Virus record (IMG/VR): IMGVR_UViG_2778260991_000010
Span: 1 to 8,430 of that record
Direction: 5' to 3' (one strand)
From: a virus
Lineage: Duplodnaviria; Heunggongvirae; Uroviricota; Caudoviricetes
Length of the DNA: 8,430 bases
The notes under the pieces are model-generated. The model saw only the letters and a program-made list of their open reading frames with translations. It did not search any database and was not told the DNA's origin. Shown here in pieces: positions 1 through 8,430 of this stretch. Positions within the stretch are counted from its first letter, which is position 1. Every line of letters starts with the position of its first letter. The translations under genes and the position numbers were made by a program.

Positions 1-915
1 AAATCCGTTTTCACGTTCCCACTGCTCACGTGCTGCCCGAATTTCCTGAACTGCCCGTGATGCGGTGCCACCTGGCGCTGCTGCATGTCTCACCCCCTTG
101 CTGACTGGTTTAACCTGCGCCCTGACGTGATTTACGTGACGGGCGAATTTCTGCTCCCACTGAACCTGGCTAAACACTTTGCCATCATCACTCCAGTAAT
201 CCCGGAATGCGGCAAGTTCAGCAGGTGTAAATTCTGGTTCCGGCAAAGCCATCCCCCACAACGCAGCCCGTCGTCGAAAATCCTGTGACGGATGCCAGTC
301 ATCGGTCATCGGAAATTTTCCAATGGGCTCGCTCAGGCCATCCAGGAATACAGGGGGCGCAGCCTGTAACGACAAAACTTCCTGCTCACTGGTCGGAGCA
401 CTCTCGCGTGCGTTATGTGTGGGGTTTAGATCTTTGGGTTCCTTTGGGTTCCGTGATCCGTTTTTGGGTGTCTTTGATGGAAAATTTGGGTGTCTTTGGT
501 TATTTTCCATGCAGCAAAGAGTTCCGTTTTTGGGGCTGTTTTGTGCTGAAACATAACCGTTTTCGGTACTGTTTTTATTAACAGTACCAATTTCACCCAC
601 CTTTAAAGACTCCCGTTTTTGGGTGTATTCAGGCTCGGCAACACTTTCTTCTACACCGATAAGTCGGTACACCACAATTTGCTTTGTTCTGCCTTTTCTC
701 TCACCGGTATCAACAATTAACCCAATCTCCATCAGGTGTCGTAAGCTGTCCTGCACAGTCTTTTTGTTCAGTTCCGTTACTTCTGCCAGTGCAGATACAG
801 ACGGGTATGCACACAAATCGGCACCGCACATATCAGCAAGCCAGGTCAATACTGACTTACTGGATGAACTGCCGGTTTTCACCTTTTTAGCCCATCGTAG
901 TGCATCGATACTCAT
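1..915 (-). CDS. Phage replication initiation protein, 5' part only (N-terminal winged-helix-like domain, iteron-encoded linker, DnaT-like C-terminal region); C-terminus lies beyond the window start
   Basis: Minus-strand frame is open for all 305 codons from the ATG at 913-915 to the window edge; with no stop in the window it is absent from the ORF track. Hand translation begins MSIDALRWAKKVKTGSSSSKSVLTWLADMCGADLCAYPSVSALAEV...GRTKQIVVYRLIG, then a low-complexity linker, then ...FRDYWSDDGKVFSQVQWEQKFARHVNHVRAQ. Start codon is uncertain because the frame stays open upstream of 915. Plus-strand ORFs listed here (85..288, 285..581, 623..1087) look like antisense shadows. Confidence 0.6.
   Translation of the reverse strand, partial: MSIDALRWAKKVKTGSSSSKSVLTWLADMCGADLCAYPSVSALAEVTELNKKTVQDSLRHLMEIGLIVDTGERKGRTKQIVVYRLIGVEESVAEPEYTQKRESLKVGEIGTVNKNSTENGYVSAQNSPKNGTLCCMENNQRHPNFPSKTPKNGSRNPKEPKDLNPTHNARESAPTSEQEVLSLQAAPPVFLDGLSEPIGKFPMTDDWHPSQDFRRRAALWGMALPEPEFTPAELAAFRDYWSDDGKVFSQVQWEQKFARHVNHVRAQVKPVSKGVRHAAAPGGTASRAVQEIRAAREQWERENGF
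431..630. repeat. Iteron array plus AT-rich inverted repeat; putative replication origin inside the replication gene
   Basis: Tandem TTTGGGTTCC at 433-442 and 443-452. CCGTTTTTGGGTGT at 458-471 and 613-626, with variants at 524-537 (CCGTTTTTGGGGCT) and 557-570 (CCGTTTTCGGTACT), and TTTGGGTGTCTTTG at 463-476 and 485-498. Perfect 9-bp inverted repeat GGTACTGTT (565-573) / AACAGTACC (580-588) around the spacer TTTATT. Same layout as the lambda origin inside gene O. Confidence 0.55.
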
Positions 916-1438
916 ACGAACCCCTGGCAGACATTTGTTTATCTGCAAAGTAATATTGGTATTGCTGACGATACGCGTGCTTGAAAGCAATAGCTTTTTC
1001 TATAAGCTCGTCAGTCTCACGTTCCACAACAGCTGGATCCGCAAAAAGCAGCCCGGACTCCACCACATCGCCATATTCTTTGTTTAACCCGGCGATCATG
1101 TACGTAATGCTTTTTCCGTCAGTAATTTCACAATACAACCTGAAATCGCTGATCCGGATAGCCTCCATAATTGCCGGAATCAGCGCCGTGAATTTTTCCC
1201 GCTTATCCCTGGTGTCGATAGCTTTCCAGCGTTCGAATATCTTCACCCGGTTAACGCCCAGCACCCGTTGATCAACCGCTCCATCATCAAACGTGACGCG
1301 TTGAACATCGATGTTCGGGCGTTCTTTCAGTGCCCAGAATGCTTCCGTGATTAATATCGTCGCCTGCTCCTGTGTCATTCCTGGTCGGCATACCCAGGTA
1401 TCCAGAGCCTCACAAACCTGTTCAGGGGTGATTTTCAT
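887..1438 (-). CDS. YdaT-like prophage protein (183 aa), downstream of the cro-like gene
   Basis: ORF-track entry with ATG at 1436-1438. Its start overlaps the last codons of the upstream cro-like gene by 17 nt, and its stop (887-889) overlaps the replication gene start. The segment KIFERWKAIDTRDKREKFTALIPAIMEAI resembles what I recall of Rac YdaT, and the position matches the ydaS-ydaT-replication layout. Family assignment is from memory, not a search. Confidence 0.5.
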   Translation of the reverse strand: MKITPEQVCEALDTWVCRPGMTQEQATILITEAFWALKERPNIDVQRVTFDDGAVDQRVLGVNRVKIFERWKAIDTRDKREKFTALIPAIMEAIRISDFRLYCEITDGKSITYMIAGLNKEYGDVVESGLLFADPAVVERETDELIEKAIAFKHAYRQQYQYYFADKQMSARGSYEYRCTTMG

Positions 1439-1649
1439 TGTTCAACCGCCCCGCCCGCTTTGCCTTACGATATTCGTCATAAACTTTGGGGTCGTACTGA
1501 AGTTCCCCGCCGGATGCCTCTTGCAGGCGCATCGCGCGACCTTCAGGAACCAGTTCCCCCCATTGAGAAACAGCAGATGGATCAACACCAGCAGCTTTCG
1601 CTACTTTGGCTTTCGTCCCATAAAAATTAATTGCGTCTGATTTAAACAT
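1422..1649 (-). CDS. dicC: Cro-like helix-turn-helix regulator, DicC/YdaS family
   Basis: The ORF-track entry 1422..1661 begins at a TTG. The likely true start is the ATG at 1647-1649 (MFKSDAINFYGTKAKVAKAAGV...), directly preceded on the minus strand by GGAGGGGG. About 75 aa, divergent from the repressor gene; the C-terminal half matches my recollection of DicC. Confidence 0.75.
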   Translation of the reverse strand: MFKSDAINFYGTKAKVAKAAGVDPSAVSQWGELVPEGRAMRLQEASGGELQYDPKVYDEYRKAKRAGRLNNENHP

Positions 1650-1663
1650 CACCCCCTCCAAAG

Positions 1664-1677
1664 TTGAGTTTTCTCAA
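1664..1677. promoter_or_regulatory. Operator-like palindrome TTGAGTTTTCTCAA in the divergent dicC/dicA control region
   Basis: TGAG-N4-CTCA inverted repeat between the start codons of the divergent regulators (1649 and 1728). The same 13-mer recurs at 2197-2209. Confidence 0.45.
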
Positions 1678-1727
1678 TAGTAATCACTCAAGGAATCTCA
1701 AGTCAAGGGTTATTAAGATATCTAAAT

Positions 1728-2135
1728 ATGAACGATAAAACTTTAGGTCAACGAATTAGAGAAAGACGCAAACAGGTTGGTTTAAGTCAAAACGATTTAA
1801 GCAAAGCCGCTGGCGTATCTGGCTCATCAATTTCACTATGGGAAAGCGACCATACAGCCCCGCGCGGGCAAAATTTGCATCGCCTGGCTGAGGTATTGCA
1901 ATGTTCACCAACTTGGATACTGTTTGGTGACGAGGATAAAACACCAGATCCACCAGTTGCACTCAACAGCGCCTTAGACTTATCGGAAGATGAGTTGGAG
2001 ATGTTGCGATTGTATCGCGCACTTCCAAAATCAGAGCAGCAAGCACAAATCAGCGAACTCCGTGCCCGCGTTGAGAATTTTAATCGCCTATTCACCGAGC
2101 TACTAGAAGCTCGCAAACGTAACAAACATCAGTAA
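1728..2135 (+). CDS. dicA: XRE-family helix-turn-helix immunity repressor, DicA-like
   Basis: 135-aa ORF. N-terminal HTH (QRIRERRKQVGLSQNDLSKAAGVSGSSISLWE) and the motif LQCSPTWILFGDEDK followed by a C-terminal helix, matching what I recall of E. coli DicA (also 135 aa). Divergent from the cro-like gene. Confidence 0.85.
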   Translation: MNDKTLGQRIRERRKQVGLSQNDLSKAAGVSGSSISLWESDHTAPRGQNLHRLAEVLQCSPTWILFGDEDKTPDPPVALNSALDLSEDELEMLRLYRALPKSEQQAQISELRARVENFNRLFTELLEARKRNKHQ

Positions 2136-2196
2136 CCCCCTTCACAAATTTTAAAGCCTTACATTTCAATGTATTGGCTTTATTTTGCATTAAATA

Positions 2197-2248
2197 TTGA
2201 GTTTTCTCATTAAAAACACTTGACCAGCTTTCATGAGAAAACTAAATT
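2197..2248 (+). promoter_or_regulatory. Putative dicB-operon promoter (TTGACC-N17-TAAATT) flanked and overlapped by two operator copies
   Basis: -35 TTGACC at 2220-2225, 17-bp spacer, -10 TAAATT at 2243-2248. Operator copy TTGAGTTTTCTCA at 2197-2209, and an inverted degenerate copy TGAGAAAACTA at 2234-2244 overlapping the spacer and -10. Consistent with repressor control of the dicB operon. Confidence 0.45.
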
Positions 2249-2324
2249 ACCACCCATCAAGACACCGCACGGTGTTCTCAGCAAACAGTTCCGCTACCCG
2301 GCGTTAAGGGGAAATGAGGTCAAC

Positions 2325-2480
2325 ATGGATACTATCGATCTTGGTAACAACGAATCTCTGGTATACGGCGTGTTTCCCAACCAGGACGGCACGTTCACCG
2401 CGATGACGTATACCAAAAGCAAAACGTTTAAAACCGAATCTGGCGCGCGTCGCTGGCTGGAAAGAAACTCAGGTGAGTGA
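2325..2480 (+). CDS. ydfA: YdfA-like small protein (51 aa)
   Basis: Internal ATG at 2325 preceded by GAGGT (2316-2320). Product MDTIDLGNNESLVYGVFPNQDGTFTAMTYTKSKTFKTESGARRWLERNSGE. First gene after the repressor, as in the Qin dicB operon. The longer ORF-track entry from 2220 starts at a TTG inside the promoter region. Confidence 0.6.
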   Translation: MDTIDLGNNESLVYGVFPNQDGTFTAMTYTKSKTFKTESGARRWLERNSGE

Positions 2481-2481
2481 T

Positions 2482-2610
2482 ATGGATTTCGACACAATCA
2501 TGGAAAAGGCTTACTAAGAATACTTCGAAGGCCTTGCCGAAGGCGAAGAAGCTCTCAGCTTCAGCGAATTTAAACAGGCGCTTTCCAGTTCGGCAAAATC
2601 TAACGACTGA
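2482..2610 (+). pseudogene. ydfB: ydfB-like ORF (42 codons) interrupted by an in-frame TAA at codon 12 (2515-2517)
   Basis: ATG at 2482, two nt after the ydfA stop. Reads MDFDTIMEKAY, then TAA, then the same frame continues EYFEGLAEGEEALSFSEFKQALSSSAKSND to TGA at 2608-2610. Total length and spacing to neighbours fit the 42-codon ydfB position. Confidence 0.45.
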
Positions 2611-2639
2611 TAAGCGAAACAGCACCGCGAGGAATCAGT

Positions 2640-2858
2640 ATGCAGAAACGAGAACCCGTCATCATCGCGCCAGACTATACCGATGATGAACTTTATGAGT
2701 GGATGCGCCAGAAAATTAATGCAGCGCAGGATCTGAAATGGGTCAATGAAGCCAGGGCTAAGCAGGCTGAAAATCTGTCCGCTCTGGAGCAGGATATCAC
2801 CAATCTGGAAAAAGCAGCGGCATTAAGCATTGCCAGAATGATTACATACCCGCGTTAA
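2640..2858 (+). CDS. ydfC: YdfC-like small protein (72 aa)
   Basis: 72-aa ORF with AGGA 7 nt upstream of the ATG. Size and position (third ORF of the operon, 30 nt after ydfB) match ydfC. Confidence 0.6.
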   Translation: MQKREPVIIAPDYTDDELYEWMRQKINAAQDLKWVNEARAKQAENLSALEQDITNLEKAAALSIARMITYPR

Positions 2859-2880
2859 TAGCTAACCAACTAGGCTAATA

Positions 2881-3288
2881 ATGGAATTTAAAGATTTACC
2901 AAAAGAAATCCAGACAATTGCTGCAACGACTCTCGGTGATAGTCTGGTGAAAATTGACCCGGCATACACCAAAAAAGAAACCATCGATAATATGGTTCGT
3001 AATGTGCGCAATGCTTTTTCTGGGCTATATAGTTCTGATAATCAAAAGCAGGAAAGCGATGTTAATGAACGGGTAATTTCTGTTTGCGTGAATGGCCACG
3101 CTCTTTCATCAATCAAAACAGAAACAGCGACAGTCTTCGATTGCCTTTGCATTGTACAGAGCCTTGTTGATACCCTGTTTCGTTCAGTGAATTTAGAAAA
3201 TGATGCAAATCTGCGAGGGCGCACAATAGCACATCCATATGCACATACTTTAGGCTCTGTGGATATCAAAGATCCCACAAATCTTTAA
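2881..3288 (+). CDS. Hypothetical protein (135 aa) in the AT-rich insert, co-oriented with the dicB operon
   Basis: ATG-to-TAA ORF of 135 codons in DNA of about 38-40% GC, where stop codons are frequent and long ORFs are unlikely by chance. Protein-like composition. Only a weak ribosome-binding site (AGG). Starts 22 nt after the ydfC stop. No family recognised. Confidence 0.5.
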   Translation: MEFKDLPKEIQTIAATTLGDSLVKIDPAYTKKETIDNMVRNVRNAFSGLYSSDNQKQESDVNERVISVCVNGHALSSIKTETATVFDCLCIVQSLVDTLFRSVNLENDANLRGRTIAHPYAHTLGSVDIKDPTNL

Positions 3289-3499
3289 TGAAATAGTTAA
3301 TGCGAATTGTACTTGCTCTTTCAGTTTCTTTCAGAATACGCGTTGAAACTGCTGGCGGTAATTTGGTATTCCATTTATTAAAATCATGCCCGGGAAAGTA
3401 CTCTTCGAAAATACTTTTAACTGCAGACTCGCCTATTGAAATGCTGCTTACCATGCGATTTTGATAAAGGCATTTAGCAATAAGAGTTGATTTTAACAT
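3266..3499 (-). CDS. Hypothetical protein (77 aa) in the AT-rich insert, antisense to the dicB operon
   Basis: ATG at 3497-3499 (minus) preceded by AGGAGG with a 4-nt spacer (reverse complement of 3501-3510). 77 codons, stop at 3266-3268. The 3' end overlaps the 3' end of the 135-aa ORF by 23 bp. No family recognised. Confidence 0.5.
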   Translation of the reverse strand: MLKSTLIAKCLYQNRMVSSISIGESAVKSIFEEYFPGHDFNKWNTKLPPAVSTRILKETERASTIRINYFIKDLWDL

Positions 3500-3503
3500 T
3501 CAC

Positions 3504-3829
3504 CCTCCTGAGGGTTGGTAATTAAGGAGTTATCCACGGGTGAGGTGGAGTGCGTGCGCCGGACACGGGTGAACATCCGGCACTGACAGTTTACTGAAAG
3601 GATATATCCCTGAAAAGTCAGGGCATAACACGAAAGTGCACGGCGAAGTCCTTCTCCCTTAGAGCCGTCGTTAAATTTAATTCGACCGTGCGCTTCCGGT
3701 TGTGGCAATCCGCGAAATGGCGCGGCGGTAAGTATGGCGGGGTTATTCTTTCCCCGTTGAGGACACCGGGTTGTCAGGTTGACCATACGCTTAAGTGACA
3801 ACCCCGCTGCAACGCCCTCTGTTATCAAT
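3504..3829 (+). other. GC-rich, hairpin-dense untranslated spacer upstream of DicF
   Basis: About 55-58% GC with no credible ORF. Stem-loops: GCCGGA/TCCGGC (3558-3581), CCCTGA-AAAG-TCAGGG (3608-3623), CCGCG/CGCGG (around 3700-3716), CGGGG/CCCCG (around 3738-3756), and a 9-bp stem GGGTTGTCA/TGACAACCC (3768-3776 / 3796-3804). Direct repeat CACGGGTGA at 3536-3544 and 3564-3572. Confidence 0.4.
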
Positions 3830-3882
3830 ATTCTGGTGACATTTGGCGGTATCAGTTTTACTCCGTGACTGCTCTGCCGCCC
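3830..3882 (+). ncRNA. dicF: DicF small regulatory RNA (about 53 nt)
   Basis: Sequence AUUCUGGUGACAUUUGGCGGUAUCAGUUUUACUCCGUGACUGCUCUGCCGCCC closely matches the DicF sequence as I recall it (two possible differences near the 5' end). It sits 186 nt upstream of the dicB start and ends in a stem plus T-run. Confidence 0.7.
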
Positions 3883-3888
3883 TTTTTT
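3845..3888 (+). terminator. Intrinsic terminator forming the DicF 3' end
   Basis: GGCGG (3845-3849) pairs with CCGCC (3877-3881), followed by TTTTTT at 3883-3888. Confidence 0.5.
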
Positions 3889-4067
3889 AAAAGTGAATTT
3901 TGTGATGCGGTGAATGCGGCTCAGCGCACGCGGAACAGTTAAATCGGTAAAGCGGTCATTTGCTGAGTAACGGGAATGCTCTGTATCCGGCGTTAATTGT
4001 TAACTGGTTAACGTCACCTGGAGGCACCAGGCACTGCATCACAAAATTCATTGTTGAGGACGCGATA

Positions 4068-4256
4068 ATGGAAAAGTTATCATACAATGCCAGTACGTCT
4101 GAACTTCGTTTCGAAATTGGCGTTATCACTGGAGACAAAACATTTATTGAAGACGCCATTAAGCAGAGAAAACTCGAGCAGGACCTGTTAAATGAAGTAT
4201 GCATTCCTTCAATGCTGGCTCGTCTGGACCTGCTGCAAAAAGGATATAAACAATGA
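4068..4256 (+). CDS. dicB: DicB-like cell-division inhibitor (62 aa)
   Basis: ATG at 4068 preceded by GAGGA. The 62-aa product contains FEIGV, EDAI and SMLARL motifs as in DicB as I recall it. Stop overlaps the ydfD start (ATGA). Confidence 0.75.
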   Translation: MEKLSYNASTSELRFEIGVITGDKTFIEDAIKQRKLEQDLLNEVCIPSMLARLDLLQKGYKQ

Positions 4257-4444
4257 AAACAACATTTGCACTCGTTCTGACAGTTTATCTTGTTTCCGGC
4301 GAATCTCTTGAGATGGTGACTGGCTTATACGGTTCAATGAAAGAATGCATGGCTGCAGCAGCAGAACAAAAAATTCCCGGTAACTGTTATCCGGTAGATA
4401 AAGCTACTCACACTAATAATAACGAAATACCGGCGGGACTTTAA
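4253..4444 (+). CDS. ydfD: YdfD-like small protein (63 aa) with hydrophobic N-terminal segment
   Basis: 63-aa ORF translationally coupled to dicB. N-terminus TTFALVLTVYLV is hydrophobic. Size and position match ydfD. Confidence 0.6.
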   Translation: MKTTFALVLTVYLVSGESLEMVTGLYGSMKECMAAAAEQKIPGNCYPVDKATHTNNNEIPAGL

Positions 4445-4537
4445 AACAGCACCGAAATAAACATCCGGTTTCATTTTTATATGCCAGCAATGGCAGGGAT
4501 TTGTTCACCCTTAAATCTGTAATGAGGTTAAAACAAA

Positions 4538-7009
4538 ATGAATAAAGTCTTTATTTGTGCAGCTATTCCAGACGAACGGGCAATAAAGGAAGAAGGTGCA
4601 GTCGCTGTGGCCACTGCCATTGAAGCCGGTGACGAGCGCCGCGCCCGAGCCAAATTTACCTGGCAATTCCTGGAGCAATATCCGGCTGCTCAGGACTGCG
4701 CTTATAAATTTCTTGTCTGTGAGGATAAACCCGGCATGCCCCGCCCTGCCATTGACTCCTGGGATACCGAATATATGCAGGAAAACCGCTGGGATGAGGA
4801 ATGCGCTTCCTTTGCTCCGGTCGAACCAGAATCCGATCCGATGAACGTCAATTTTGACAAGCTGTCCCCTGAAGTACAGAACGCGGTCCTGGTTAAGTTC
4901 GGTACATGTGAAAACATCACCGTTGATATGGTGATTAGCGCGCAGGAATTGTTGCAGGAAGACATAGCAACATTCGACGGACATATCGTTGAAGCGTTGA
5001 TGAAAATGCCAGAAGTTAACGCCATGTATCCGGAGCTTAAGCTGCATACCATCGGGTGGGTTAAGCATAAATGTAAGCCTGGTGCCAAATGGCCCGAAAT
5101 TCAGGCAGAGATGCGCATCTGGAAAAAACGTCGCGAAGGTGAACGCAAGGAAACCGGGAAATACACGTCTGTTGTTGATCTCGCCCGCGCCAGAGCCAAT
5201 CAACAGAACACTGAAAATTCAACAGGAAAAATCAACCCGGTCATTGCTGCCACTCATCGCGAATACAAGCAGACATGGAAAACACTGGATGACGAACTGG
5301 CCTACGCTCTCTGGCCTGGTGACATTGATGCCGGAAACATTGACGGCAGCATCCATCGCTGGGCAAAAAATGAAGTTATCGACAACGACCGCGAAGACTG
5401 GAAGCGTATCTCGGCATCAATGCGCAAACAGCCTGATGCCCTTCGCTACGACTGCCAGACTATTTTTGGCCTTGTCCGTGAACGTCCGATCGACATTCAC
5501 AAAGACCCTGTAGCACTGAACAAATACATTACTGAATACCTGACTACAAAGGGCGTGTTTGAAGATGAAGGAAGAAATCAGAGCGCAACTGATACTCTCT
5601 CGTCGCCAGTACCAGAAACTGATGCAGTGGAAACGGCAATTCCGGACAACGAAAAAACCGAATGCAAAGTGGAAGTCGAACCATCTGTAGAGCGTGAGGG
5701 GCCGTTCTACTTCCTCTTCACCGACAAGGATGGCGAAAAATACGGTCGCGCAAACAAACTTTCTGGTCTGAATAAGGCGCTGACTGCAGGGGCTACTGAA
5801 ATCACGAAAGAAGAATATTTTGCCCGCAAAAACGGTACATACTCAGGTTCACAACAAAATACTGGTGCATCTGACACGACCGCACAACCAGAGCCGGTAA
5901 AAGTTACCGCTGACGAAGTAAACAAAATTATGCAGGCAGCCAATATCAGCCAGCCTGACGCCGATAAGTTGCTTGCTGCCTCTCGCGGAGAATTTGTTGC
6001 AGGGATTAGCGACCCGAATGATCCGAAATGGGTGAAGGGGATTGAAACCCGCGACTCTGTAAACCAGAACCAGCAAGAATCGGAACAGAACGACCAGAAA
6101 ACGGAACAAAACAGCCCAAATGCGTTACAAAACGAGCCAGAAACGAAACAGGTTGAACCAGTAGCGCAACAGGAGCCGGAAAAAGCCTGCACCGCCTGCG
6201 GTCAGACCGGCGGCAGTAGCTGCCCTGATTGTGGTGCGGTGATGGGTGACGCAACATACCAGGAAATATTCGATGAAGAGCATCAGCCTGAAGTTCAGGA
6301 AAATGATCCGGAGGAAATGGAAGGCACTGCGCATCAGCACAAGGAGAACACTGGCGGCAATCAGCATCATGCCAGCGATAGTGAAACTGGCGAGGCATCA
6401 GATCCCTTAATTAAGGCGAACGGTCATCATAATCTCACATCCACCAGCAGAGCGGAGATTCATCTGATGATCGACCTTGAAACCATGGGAAAAAATCCCG
6501 ATGCCCCGATTATCTCAATAGGCGCAATATTTTTCGATCCACAAACCGGAGATATGGGACCGGAATTTAGCAAGACCATCGATCTGGATACTGCTGGCGG
6601 AGTCATTGATCGTGACGTCATTAAATGGTGGCTTAAGCAATCACGCGAAGCGCAATCTGCCATTATGACCGATGAAATCCCGTTAGATGATGCACTGTTA
6701 CAATTGCGGGAATTTATCGACGAAAACTCCGGTGAATTTTTTGTTCAGGTCTGGGGAAATGGAGCCAACTTCGACAACACGATTTTGCGCCGTTCATACG
6801 AACGGCAGGGGATCCCCTGCCCGTGGCGTTACTACAACGATCGCGATGTACGCACAATCGTTGAGCTGGGGAAAGCCATAGACTTCGATGCCAGAACGGC
6901 TATTCCATTCGAAGGTGAGCGCCATAATGCACTTGATGACGCCCGTTACCAGGCAAAATACGTTTCAGCAATCTGGCAAAAACTGATCCCGAATCAGGCT
7001 GATTTTTAA
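4538..7009 (+). CDS. Large prophage exonuclease (823 aa): N-terminal exodeoxyribonuclease VIII-like region, acidic Q/E/N-rich linker with a CxxC-x7-CxxC zinc ribbon, C-terminal DEDDh 3'-5' exonuclease domain
   Basis: ATG at 4538 preceded by GAGGT. C-terminal motifs IDLETMG, WGNGANFDNTIL and HNALDDARYQAKY are typical of DnaQ-like DEDDh exonucleases. Zinc ribbon CTACGQTGGSSCPDC is encoded at 6188-6232. Sits where recE/ydfE-like genes lie in Rac/Qin-type prophages. Internal minus-strand ORFs (4511..5203 and others) are antisense shadows. Confidence 0.7.
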   Translation: MNKVFICAAIPDERAIKEEGAVAVATAIEAGDERRARAKFTWQFLEQYPAAQDCAYKFLVCEDKPGMPRPAIDSWDTEYMQENRWDEECASFAPVEPESDPMNVNFDKLSPEVQNAVLVKFGTCENITVDMVISAQELLQEDIATFDGHIVEALMKMPEVNAMYPELKLHTIGWVKHKCKPGAKWPEIQAEMRIWKKRREGERKETGKYTSVVDLARARANQQNTENSTGKINPVIAATHREYKQTWKTLDDELAYALWPGDIDAGNIDGSIHRWAKNEVIDNDREDWKRISASMRKQPDALRYDCQTIFGLVRERPIDIHKDPVALNKYITEYLTTKGVFEDEGRNQSATDTLSSPVPETDAVETAIPDNEKTECKVEVEPSVEREGPFYFLFTDKDGEKYGRANKLSGLNKALTAGATEITKEEYFARKNGTYSGSQQNTGASDTTAQPEPVKVTADEVNKIMQAANISQPDADKLLAASRGEFVAGISDPNDPKWVKGIETRDSVNQNQQESEQNDQKTEQNSPNALQNEPETKQVEPVAQQEPEKACTACGQTGGSSCPDCGAVMGDATYQEIFDEEHQPEVQENDPEEMEGTAHQHKENTGGNQHHASDSETGEASDPLIKANGHHNLTSTSRAEIHLMIDLETMGKNPDAPIISIGAIFFDPQTGDMGPEFSKTIDLDTAGGVIDRDVIKWWLKQSREAQSAIMTDEIPLDDALLQLREFIDENSGEFFVQVWGNGANFDNTILRRSYERQGIPCPWRYYNDRDVRTIVELGKAIDFDARTAIPFEGERHNALDDARYQAKYVSAIWQKLIPNQADF

Positions 7010-7020
7010 TGTTCAACCCC

Positions 7021-7053
7021 GGTCGTCGCCCACCAGCTATAGTGGCGGCGACC
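7021..7053 (+). other. Stem-loop (10-bp stem including one G-U) between the exonuclease gene and xis
   Basis: GGTCGTCGCC (7021-7030) pairs with GGCGGCGACC (7044-7053) across a 13-nt loop. No downstream T-run, so not a canonical intrinsic terminator. Confidence 0.35.
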
Positions 7054-7073
7054 ATGATTAGCGAACGACGCTC

Positions 7074-7322
7074 ATGGCAAGACTTATTCTGCTCACTGAG
7101 TGGGCAAAAGAGGAATTCAGCGATCCGGTCCCTACTCCGGGCACGTTAAGTAAATACGCTAAAGCCGGAATGATATTTCCTCTCCCCAAAAAAGTTGGAA
7201 GACACTGGCGAGTGGATCCGCGAGCTCGCTTTGTCGGAATGGTAAACAAGCCGGAGGTGATCGCCACAGATCACCCTGCTTTGAAGAGGATACTGGAAGA
7301 TGGCGCGCCCGCGAAAATATAA
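7074..7322 (+). CDS. xis: Excisionase (lambda Xis-like)
   Basis: 82-aa ORF immediately upstream of int, overlapping it by 23 nt, as with lambda xis-int. Small basic DNA-binding-like protein (EWAKEEF...FPLPKKVGRHWRV). Weak ribosome-binding site, so the start is uncertain. Confidence 0.65.
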   Translation: MARLILLTEWAKEEFSDPVPTPGTLSKYAKAGMIFPLPKKVGRHWRVDPRARFVGMVNKPEVIATDHPALKRILEDGAPAKI

Positions 7323-8430
7323 AACCAATGTTCCGGGATTATCTCCGTATTTTGACAAAAGAAATAACAAAGTTTACTGGCGTTACAGGCATCCCATAAC
7401 AGGCAAAAATCACGGTCTCGGCAGTATTGACCAGAAACTGGCAGAAACTATTGCAGCAGAAGCGAACAGCCGTCTTGCCAGGCAGCAAATGGAACAAATG
7501 CTCAGTCTGCAGGAGAAAATTATTAATGATACCGGCGGTTCATCAACCGTTTCCATTTTTCTGAATAATTACAGAAAAATTCAACAGGAAAGATATGAAA
7601 ACGGAGAAATCAAACTCAACACGCTGAAACAGAAAGCGGCCCCTCTCAGGGTTTTTGATGAACGTTTTGGCACCAGACCGTTAGATGCCATAACCGTAAA
7701 GGATGTGGTATCGGTGCTGGAAGAGTACAAGTCCAGAGGACATAACAGAATGGGACAAATTTTCAGGAAGGTACTGATCGATGTTTTCCGGGAAGCTCAG
7801 CAAACGGGCGATGTCCCGCCAGGCTTTAACCCTGCAGAATCGGCAAAAAAACCACAGGTGCGGATATCAAGACAGCGACTAACTTTTGATGAGTGGACGA
7901 TGATTTATAACGCAGCGGAAAAGGATGGTTACTTTTTACAGCGCGGTATGCTGCTGGCACTGATGACAGGCCAGCGCCTTTCAGATATTTGCAAAATGCA
8001 ATTTTCGGATATCCGGGATGGTTATCTTCATGTCGAACAGCAAAAAACAGGAACCCGGATTGCCATCCCTCTGGCTCTGCGTTGCGATAAATTAAATCTC
8101 ACCCTGGATGATGTGGTGTCATCCTGTCGCGATTGCGTTCTTAGTCCGTGGCTATTGCACCATCATCACGCGAAAGGGACAGCTAAGCGCGGCGGGATGG
8201 TTAAGCCAGCAACGTTAACCGTTGCATTTAAAAAAGCGCGGGATTCTGTGGATTACAACTGGCGTGCTAATGGCACCCCACCCTCTTTCCATGAGCAGAG
8301 ATCTTTATCAGAGCGATTGTTCAGAGAGCAGGGAATTGATACCCAAATTTTGCTGGGTCATTCGAATCAAAAAATGACCGATATTTACAACGATGCACGC
8401 GGCAAGGAGTGGAAAAAACTGGTCATTTGA
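7300..8430 (+). CDS. int: Tyrosine-type site-specific integrase, lambda Int family
   Basis: 376-aa ORF with GAGGA upstream. Clear similarity to lambda Int from memory: YVEQQKTGTRIAIP, PPSFHEQRSLSERL, and the C-terminal LLGHSNQKMTDIYNDARGKEW carrying the catalytic His and Tyr. Stop codon is at the window end. Confidence 0.9.
   Translation: MARPRKYKTNVPGLSPYFDKRNNKVYWRYRHPITGKNHGLGSIDQKLAETIAAEANSRLARQQMEQMLSLQEKIINDTGGSSTVSIFLNNYRKIQQERYENGEIKLNTLKQKAAPLRVFDERFGTRPLDAITVKDVVSVLEEYKSRGHNRMGQIFRKVLIDVFREAQQTGDVPPGFNPAESAKKPQVRISRQRLTFDEWTMIYNAAEKDGYFLQRGMLLALMTGQRLSDICKMQFSDIRDGYLHVEQQKTGTRIAIPLALRCDKLNLTLDDVVSSCRDCVLSPWLLHHHHAKGTAKRGGMVKPATLTVAFKKARDSVDYNWRANGTPPSFHEQRSLSERLFREQGIDTQILLGHSNQKMTDIYNDARGKEWKKLVI

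Follow-up and report, generated by a model that had tools for sequence, protein, structure and literature searches.

What does the last gene before the excisionase and integrase genes of this lambdoid prophage do, given that its product resembles RecE over part of its length and ends in a nuclease domain of a different kind? The window, a stretch of 8,430 nucleotides of a Caudoviricetes genome (IMG/VR record IMGVR_UViG_2778260991_000010, positions 1 to 8,430), carries the gene together with its operon neighborhood (Table 1). The open reading frame had been described as intact from its letters, and database comparison agreed: it matched the RefSeq CDS WP_096127533.1 ("exonuclease") at 100% DNA identity, and PHROG 2082 covered its 823-aa product end to end (823/823). 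The overall dN/dS against 51 unique intact homologs was 0.24, and values by region ranged from 0.18 to 0.43, indicating purifying selection throughout; these figures come from a locus survey, also used for counts, in which the shared middle region served as seed and only relatives 86–93% identical were returned. RefSeq identity, the end-to-end PHROG match, and purifying selection in all regions thus establish the ORF as a genuine gene and not an accident of the sequence. Since the protein is already cataloged in databases, it is an annotated protein without an assigned role and not a new kind of system. A fusion of a RecE-like scaffold with a DEDDh domain was not described in the literature searched (ydfE; Rv2179c and phage; RecE, DEDDh, and prophage).

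Table 1. Features of the exonuclease gene, its product, and its neighbors in the window
Feature	Residues	Positions	Strand	Basis
DicF sRNA, upstream of exonuclease gene		3831-3882	+	Rfam DicF, 77 bits
dicB, upstream of exonuclease gene		4068-4256	+	Pfam DicB, E=2e-37
ydfD-like DUF1482 gene, upstream of exonuclease gene		4253-4444	+	Pfam DUF1482, E=7e-19
Shine-Dalgarno GAGG, 10 nt 5' of the ATG		4524-4527	+	Read from sequence
Complete CDS, 823 aa plus stop, ATG start	1-823	4538-7009	+	ORF list; RefSeq match
YdfE-type N-module (alpha/beta sub-domain, then helical sub-domain)	1-205	4538-5152	+
Helical domain, five helices	245-340	5270-5557	+	AlphaFold2 pLDDT about 86-91
Region homologous to non-catalytic middle of Rac RecE	262-626	5321-6415	+	BLASTP, NCBIfam
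Beta-hairpin/helix mini-domain, GPFY...GRANK...EI..EEY.ARKNG	385-435	5690-5842	+	Conservation, pLDDT about 81-89
Acidic Q/E/N-rich low-complexity linker	501-640	6038-6457	+	Composition
Four-cysteine knuckle CTACGQTGGSSCPDC, putative zinc ribbon	551-565	6188-6232	+	Motif search
DEDDh 3'-5' exonuclease domain, Rv2179c/DexA family	642-813	6461-6976	+	PF16473
Excisionase, downstream of exonuclease gene		7074-7322	+	Pfam Exc, E=4e-7
Integrase, downstream of exonuclease gene		7300-8430	+	Annotated so at near-identical STEC383 locus

The 823-aa protein is an intact homolog of the K-12 pseudogene ydfE (b1577), the orthologous gene of the same operon in Qin (dicB-ydfD-ydfE-...-intQ). ydfE had been described as a fragment interrupted by an insertion sequence, and its annotation is just that: the gene is overlapped by IS2E, which cuts it after codon 256 and leaves it without the RecE-like middle and without the DEDDh domain. 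Residues 1–256 of K-12 YdfE were 91% identical to the 823-aa protein. The pseudogene status of the K-12 copy, the highly mosaic character of the family, and the split copies in some phage records (vB_EcoM-606R7, for example, has two adjacent "exodeoxyribonuclease VIII" CDSs) would suit a relic without function, left to decay after an accidental fusion in the course of prophage mosaicism. We consider such a relic very improbable, however, given dN/dS of 0.18–0.43 in all regions, five intact catalytic residues, near-full-length copies in 3533 of 5426 complete E. coli genomes, and presence of the gene in the phage records mEp460, Tritos, HannyBb, and PhiR42_1.

The nuclease domain occupies the C-terminal 22% of the protein. 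It matched PF16473 (Rv2179c-like 3'-5' exoribonuclease) at E=7e-66 and 221.6 bits, against a gathering cutoff of 27, with profile positions 2–177 of 177 covered. Motif I (MIDLETMG at aa 644; D646 and E648), motif II (GANFDN at aa 742; D746), and motif III (HNALDD at aa 796; H796 and D801) were all present, and the five residues were invariant in an alignment with T4 DexA and 11 standalone homologs. The preliminary description had read DnaQ-like motifs (DxE, NFD, and H-x4-D) at the C-terminus in place of the PD-(D/E)xK fold of Rac RecE, and it was right on both counts. The motif residues lie where it placed them, PF12684 (PD-(D/E)xK, DUF3799) had no match in the protein by Pfam, the BLASTP alignment with RecE stops at RecE residue 591, and the RecE nuclease domain used as a tblastn query gave no match in the window. 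The dN/dS of the domain was 0.21. This domain is very probably a two-metal-ion DEDDh exonuclease, with both its activity and its 3'-5' polarity being predicted.

T4 DexA belongs to the same DEDDh sub-family (phrog_255, which matched the domain at E=2e-78) and shares all five catalytic residues. It was also the closest solved structure by sequence (8KEL; phmmer E=6e-7), with 25% identity in the alignment that included the standalone homologs; 8KEL and 8KEN were the sole phmmer matches among solved structures, and up to E=10 no chain of Rv2179c appeared. DexA is a standalone protein of 227 aa from a virulent phage and has extra loops, whereas the domain studied here is fused; the DexA oligomerization residue S87 aligned with Pro, and D90 aligned with Asp. 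DexA degrades DNA from the 3' end (3'-5' exonuclease) and is documented to act at double-strand breaks in intron homing, its other documented role being the scavenging of host DNA (PMC12153337). We infer that the substrate of the 823-aa protein is DNA, not RNA. A DEDDh fold alone does not tell an RNA from a DNA substrate.

The protein might instead serve RNA or bulk nucleic acid turnover, as a 3'-5' exoribonuclease or as a DexA-like scavenging DNase that feeds replication, with no role in recombination. The DEDDh fold by itself fits RNA or DNA, PF16473 is named after the M. tuberculosis 3'-5' exoribonuclease Rv2179c, many RefSeq copies are called "3'-5' exoribonuclease", and DexA also scavenges host DNA (PMC12153337). 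The presence of an RNase, Rv2179c, in the Pfam family and this naming of NCBI copies likewise count against a DNA-recombination reading. Against turnover, DexA, a DNase, is closer by sequence than any RNase of solved structure (phmmer, up to E=10), and a conserved scaffold of 640 residues, shared with recombination proteins and under purifying selection, is more than a simple scavenger would require. We also know of no need of a temperate lambdoid phage for scavenging of the host genome, and on balance we regard a turnover function as quite unlikely.

The N-terminal region had been called RecE-like, a label that stood for aa 262–626 and failed for the first ~205 residues. BLASTP aligned aa 262–626 with RecE 278–591 (38% identity, E=6e-58), the similarity being very high from aa ~470 on, and DNA positions 5962–6411 were 75% identical to K-12 recE. 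NCBIfam PRK09709 matched aa 238–626 at model positions 261–603 of 877; the score of 262.6 bits, versus an equivalog cutoff of 1269, is far below exonuclease VIII membership. The similarity to RecE ends ~15 residues short of the crystallized RecE nuclease domain. The part of RecE that resembles the 823-aa protein is the region without known function (PMC11611040), and "RecE-like" therefore tells nothing about activity. The first ~205 residues form a YdfE module. PF06630, the N-terminal Exonuc_VIII domain of RecE, had no match in the 823-aa protein in a Pfam search at E<=1, with K-12 RecE itself scoring E=6e-98, and a profile-profile comparison led us to reject any remote relationship of the YdfE N-module to the RecE N-domain (hhalign probability, 1.5%). 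The Pfam domains YdfE_N (PF27430) and YdfE_C (PF27432), which take their name from K-12 ydfE, were both precomputed in homologs 91–95% identical to the 823-aa protein, and their placement here is taken from these close homologs and from the identity to K-12 YdfE 1–256.

Structural relatives of the scaffold were sought, and no informative one was found. Its mini-domain was marked by residues invariant among 70 scaffold relatives (G388, P389, F390, Y391, R404, A405, N406, K407, G418, E421, and I422) and is an extra element relative to K-12 RecE, in which the corresponding stretch was gapped in the BLASTP alignment. The long acidic Q/E/N-rich linker previously noted ahead of the nuclease domain was evident from composition, with a net charge of -22, 40% D/E/Q/N, and 11% hydrophobic residues over aa 501–640. 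The least constrained region of the protein was aa 441–635 (dN/dS 0.43). RecE carries CNACGQTGGDNCPDC aligned to the four-cysteine knuckle within the linker. Zinc-ribbon Pfam matches to the knuckle were weak only, and its cysteine pattern suggests that it may bind a metal.

Rac RecE (exonuclease VIII, K-12 b1350) is encoded at the equivalent position, by the final large gene of the early-left operon ahead of xis/int. The two proteins share the homologous middle, including the CxxC...CxxC knuckle and the acidic linker (E=6e-58), and both put a nuclease domain C-terminal to a long scaffold. They differ at both ends. RecE has an N-terminal PF06630 domain, whereas the 823-aa protein has the unrelated YdfE N-module, and the RecE nuclease is of the PD-(D/E)xK 5'-3' type (PF12684; 606–866), in contrast to the DEDDh 3'-5' type found here. 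In addition, recE is followed by recT, whereas the 823-aa gene is without an annealase. More diverse relatives were recovered by seeding with P0123 and P0138. A further group of relatives consists of scaffold-annealase fusions (PHROG 2489, with P0150 of Enterobacter hormaechei as an example). These fusions have the same YdfE_N/YdfE_C N-module and the same GPFY...RANK mini-domain, are 35–47% identical over aa 1–450, and occupy the same operon position, between a kil-type gene and xis/int. Relatives of this kind end in a Rad52-like annealase domain, yet databases label them exonuclease VIII as well, P0150 being named "exodeoxyribonuclease VIII" by NCBI. Three C-terminal cassettes are swapped on a common scaffold: a PD-(D/E)xK nuclease, a Rad52/Sak-like annealase, and a DEDDh nuclease.

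The gene order DicF-dicB-ydfD-like upstream of the exonuclease gene is the same as in K-12 Qin. No gene lies between the exonuclease gene and xis/int, and the near-identical STEC383 locus continues with excisionase, integrase, and then ompW. From dicB to xis, sites resembling promoters or terminators were not in excess, which is consistent with co-transcription of the gene with the upstream early-left (dicB-type) genes. No annealase gene was found from the immunity region to int in the window, and three variants of RecT, lambda Bet, and a Rad52-like domain, used as tblastn queries, gave no match in the window; the adjacent recT-like annealase reported as missing is thus indeed absent, xis and int being the only genes downstream. 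The nuclease type on the scaffold is tied to annealase presence. A RecT-family annealase gene lay directly downstream in 38 of 39 loci of the PD-(D/E)xK (5'-3') type versus 0 of 122 loci of the DEDDh (3'-5') type, these loci being closely related E. coli prophages picked by similarity whose counts are not independent. A lambda Gam tblastn match in mEp460 (37 aa, E=0.002) was weak and was judged spurious.

Our best explanation, to which we assign a probability of about one half, is that the 823-aa protein is a functional lytic-phase 3'-end-processing nuclease, built of three parts, of a Qin/PPompW-type lambdoid prophage. Its gene closes the early-left (dicB) operon ahead of xis-int, the slot in which Rac carries recE-recT and lambda carries exo-bet, and, judging from the K-12 dicB operon, the protein would be made upon prophage derepression. 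The non-catalytic scaffold (YdfE N-module plus RecE-like middle) may be a platform on which phages swap C-terminal effector cassettes, to which the ~140-residue acidic linker with its Cys4 knuckle would tether a DEDDh domain predicted to take nucleotides off free 3' ends. The protein would process DNA 3' ends in lytic development, as an alternative module for end processing that has the opposite polarity and does without a dedicated annealase. One example would be the trimming of 3' tails at breaks, which T4 DexA carries out in intron homing; strand pairing would then fall to the host. The end-processing or recombination role itself is argued by analogy, and we put it at slightly below even odds. 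With a scaffold that has no informative structural relative and a shared RecE region of no known function, the recombination context is guilt by association. Moreover, a 3'-5' exonuclease would destroy, and not generate, the 3' tails used by annealases and RecA, which makes it far from evident that the protein promotes recombination.

The best explanation also has to be set against EcD (HAK9828821.1), the only E. coli DexA-family member with reported biochemistry and phenotype and, as the only tested E. coli homolog, an anti-T4 defense nuclease, which counts against it (PMC12153337). EcD is a DEDDh exonuclease with a core shorter than that of DexA; it was inactive on unmodified dsDNA, degraded T4 DNA, and protected cells from T4 (PMC12153337). 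Enzymes of this kind were termed HREX, for HmC-recognizing exonucleases, by Kang et al. (2025; PMC12153337), according to whom K-12 is without DexA homologs, which fits a ydfE truncated ahead of the DEDDh domain. The 823-aa protein could likewise be an HREX-type defense or superinfection-exclusion nuclease that spares host DNA and degrades incoming modified-cytosine phage DNA, its scaffold serving localization or regulation. In its favor, the nearest solved and characterized relative is T4 DexA, the gene resides on a prophage and is extremely widespread among E. coli, and the activity of EcD gives a precedent. The neighboring dicB points the same way, as its expression reportedly affects infection by some phages. 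Nevertheless, we find a defense function unlikely. EcD is standalone and starts at motif I (primer: MIDTET), not fused (it was likened to the 823-aa domain by published description and primer only), and the proposed 5hmC readers of DexA are not conserved: W152 aligned with Tyr in WRYYND, and D169 aligned with Ala in a gapped, poorly aligned stretch (LGKAI-DFD). The gene also sits in a repressor-controlled early-left operon beside xis-int, not in a moron-like position, and the cassettes exchanged with it on the scaffold are recombination modules. The sole PADLOC match was to a generic cas-associated DEDDh model (E=3e-5), which we did not accept as a sign of a defense system. If the domain acts like EcD, most E. 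coli would carry a prophage nuclease against modified-DNA phages that was lost in K-12 by IS2.

Returning to end processing, a broader version holds that effectors of phage recombination dock in general on the RecE/YdfE scaffold and that the DEDDh version of this scaffold is an unrecognized, annealase-independent end-processing system with polarity opposite to that of RecET/Red. We regard this version as speculative and rather doubtful. If true, roughly two in three E. coli genomes would contain the system, which could represent a new phage DNA repair or recombination route via host RecA or an antagonism of 3'-tail-dependent host or competitor recombination, and the cassette swaps would open the unexplained N-terminal region of RecE, ~600 residues long, to experiment. 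The nuclease/annealase pattern provides a testable framework for a question that is minor but of long standing, the role of the large non-catalytic part of RecE, and the cassette pattern could give new recombineering parts. The 823-aa gene is among the commonest E. coli prophage genes, yet it is inconsistently named in databases, where proteins of this type appear as "exonuclease", "3'-5' exoribonuclease", or "exodeoxyribonuclease VIII".

The 823-aa ORF starts with ATG, has a GAGG Shine-Dalgarno sequence 10 nt 5' of it, and is 100% identical in DNA to RefSeq CDS WP_096127533.1 ('exonuclease') of E. coli STEC383 and several further strains. Of 5426 complete E. coli genomes, 4779 contain DNA related to this gene, and 3533 have a place where at least 80% of it is covered; catalogued lambdoid phage records carrying it include mEp460, Tritos, HannyBb, PhiR42_1, and the PPompW prophages. 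The C-terminal domain was assigned to the DEDDh nucleases (PF16473 Rv2179c-like, E = 7e-66; phrog_255, E = 2e-78), and the solved structure closest to it in sequence is that of T4 exonuclease A, DexA (8KEL/8KEN; E = 6e-7). The catalytic motifs listed in the preliminary description were correct: MIDLETMG (D646, E648), GANFDN (D746), and HNALDD (H796, D801). Because the catalytic pentad is intact, the family assignment is strong, and the gene is under purifying selection, the protein is predicted, with a probability of about 0.85, to be an active two-metal 3'-5' exonuclease; that it is a dead relic is highly improbable. It is a genuine Rv2179c/DexA-family DEDDh protein.

The middle region is homologous to residues 278-591 of RecE, exonuclease VIII of the Rac prophage (BLASTP E = 6e-58), and positions 261-603 of NCBIfam PRK09709 match residues 238-626. 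It includes a confident helical domain and ends in an acidic low-complexity linker (net charge -22, 40% D/E/Q/N), which is interrupted by a CxxC-x7-CxxC knuckle common to RecE. The similarity stops ~15 residues short of the crystallised RecE nuclease domain; the RecE nuclease comprises residues 564-866, and the N-terminal part of RecE is 'of unknown function' (review PMC11611040). Conservation within the scaffold (the N-module plus the RecE-like middle) is highest in a small beta-hairpin/helix unit with the invariant pattern GPFY...GRANK...EI..EEY.ARKNG, which is kept in all YdfE-scaffold proteins regardless of C-terminal cassette and is absent from K-12 RecE. In close homologues, the N-module corresponds to YdfE_N and YdfE_C, two Pfam families of recent date, and the AlphaFold2 model (70-sequence alignment) shows an alpha/beta unit and then a helical unit there with high confidence (pLDDT about 85-94). 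A Pfam scan of the N-module gave no match to PF06630, the N-terminal domain that RecE itself carries, and homology between the two was rejected by profile-profile comparison (probability 1.5%). Since the window protein has neither the N-domain nor the nuclease domain of exonuclease VIII, falls short of the family cutoff, and has no RecT partner, it is not a member of that family as defined by NCBI and Pfam; the only feature that it has in common with RecE is the latter's unexplained middle region.

When 1.84 billion representative proteins were searched exhaustively, 11,562 relatives were returned: numerous 180-200-aa DEDDh proteins that stand alone (45-50% identical to residues 642-816), large proteins with only the N-terminal part in common, and large proteins with only the middle and C-terminal parts in common. 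By Pfam scans, all combinations of N-module and nuclease exist. A RecE-type N-domain precedes PD-(D/E)xK in RecE itself and DEDDh in P0123, P0126, P0133, and P0136, whereas the YdfE-type N-module precedes DEDDh in the window protein and PD-(D/E)xK in P0138 and locus L089. Median DEDDh identity is ~96% between loci with unrelated N-termini, which indicates recent shuffling. The two N-module types can also be combined within one protein, as P0122 (901 aa) carries a RecE N-domain fragment (PF06630 positions 140-184), YdfE-type sequence from about window residue 55, and then DEDDh. P0129 (702 aa; phrog_26058) has a fourth C-terminal cassette of about 250 aa on the YdfE scaffold; it had no Pfam match, its PHROG has no known function, and by sequence it is neither nuclease nor Rad52-like.

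Nuclease type was compared with annealase content in 166 loci from IMG/VR, which were retrieved with three queries (the shared middle region, P0123, and P0138) and classified by tblastn. An annealase gene accompanied the PD-(D/E)xK cassette in 38 of 39 loci, the exception having just 2 bp of flank, and the DEDDh cassette in 0 of 122; the loci, which were picked by similarity, are E. coli prophages closely related to one another, and the counts thus describe a consistent pattern rather than independent events. The annealase was K-12-type RecT in 33 loci and divergent RecT in five, for two of which Pfam gave confirmation (E = 3e-43 and 9e-30). The DEDDh loci (YdfE N-module in 73, RecE N-domain in 44, and no N-terminus match in five) gave no tblastn match to RecT, lambda Bet, or Rad52-like genes, and the sequence downstream reached 1 kb or more in 116 of the 122. 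Neither an annealase nor lambda Exo was detected in the whole mEp460 genome, which encodes RusA.

We infer that the window protein would process DNA ends in the recombination slot of the prophage. This role is favoured by the gene position, which matches that of recE-recT and exo-bet, by the partners among the exchangeable cassettes (a Rad52-like annealase and, accompanied by RecT, a recombination nuclease), and by DexA, the closest characterised relative, which is an exonuclease acting on DNA and takes part at double-strand breaks in intron homing (PMC12153337). What speaks against it is that the 3' tails used by annealases and RecA would be removed by a 3'-5' exonuclease, and that the scaffold has no known function. 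The main alternative is a defence nuclease attacking modified phage DNA like EcD, a standalone E. coli DexA homologue reported to spare unmodified DNA, degrade T4 DNA, and protect cells (Kang et al. 2025, PMC12153337). This appears unlikely: the two residues proposed in that study for 5hmC recognition are not kept (W152 is Tyr; D169, in a gapped stretch, is Ala), the PADLOC match is to generic DEDDh only, and the gene sits within a repressor-controlled operon adjoining xis-int. A role on RNA or in scavenging, slightly less likely again, is raised by the name exoribonuclease, which NCBI gives to many copies with reference to Rv2179c.

Databases already list the architecture (RefSeq names; PHROG 2082, which matches the window protein end to end; Pfam YdfE_N/YdfE_C plus Rv2179c-like), yet a literature search found no paper on the fusion or its function; the protein is therefore an uncharacterised combination of known kinds, not a new kind of system, and nothing about its gene is categorically surprising. 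What this analysis adds is the picture of cassettes being exchanged and the strict linkage of nuclease type to annealase, and this ubiquitous gene gives a way into what the N-terminal region of RecE does.

The window represents the arm of a Qin-like lambdoid prophage that runs from immunity region to integrase, and at the near-identical locus in STEC383 the prophage is integrated beside ompW. The near-identity (99.5%) covers only window positions 3553-8430, with mosaic sequence upstream of 3553. Gene order agrees with K-12 Qin. The preliminary description had rightly given ydfE there as interrupted: it is a pseudogene overlapped by IS2E, whose residues 1-256 share 91% identity with the window protein and are followed by IS-derived sequence.

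Features of the window in gene order, with the regions of the exonuclease
Feature	Position (nt)	Strand	Residues	Remark
YdaT-like ORF	887-1438	-		183 aa
DicC/Cro-like	1422-1661			
DicA-like repressor				
ydfA				DUF1391
ydfB				
ydfC				
Unassigned ORF	2881-3288	+		135 aa
Convergent ORF	3266-3499	-		77 aa
DicF sRNA	3831-3882			canonical; Rfam 77 bits
Segment similar to K-12 Rac	3877-4052			
dicB				
ydfD-like				DUF1482
Exonuclease	4538-7009	+		823 aa
N-module			1-205	
Helical domain			245-340	
RecE-like middle			262-626	
Beta-hairpin/helix unit	5690-5842		385-435	
Acidic linker			501-640	
DEDDh domain			642-813	
xis				
int				

In phage vB_EcoM-606R7 (L006 4670-7113), the exonuclease is a split or frameshifted copy, as it is annotated as two adjoining 'exodeoxyribonuclease VIII' CDSs (4670-5590 and 5746-7113). 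Close similarity to the window gene is confined to its second half (45% coverage), a further sign that the gene is mosaic or decaying in some lineages.

The 183-aa ORF overlaps the start of the DicC/Cro-like gene by 17 nt; its sole Pfam match is a modest one to YdaT_toxin (E = 2e-5, residues 61-130), and it may be a divergent cII-position/YdaT-family protein. The two ORFs between ydfC and DicF (low GC, about 0.38-0.42) had no Pfam match, and their segment, which may be a moron or mosaic insert, differs from the STEC383 prophage, where a pseudogene is annotated in the equivalent position. Just 3' of DicF, the segment ~77% identical to the upstream region of K-12 Rac kilS/kilR suggests a putative regulatory segment common to the upstream regions of the division-inhibitor genes dicB and kilR.
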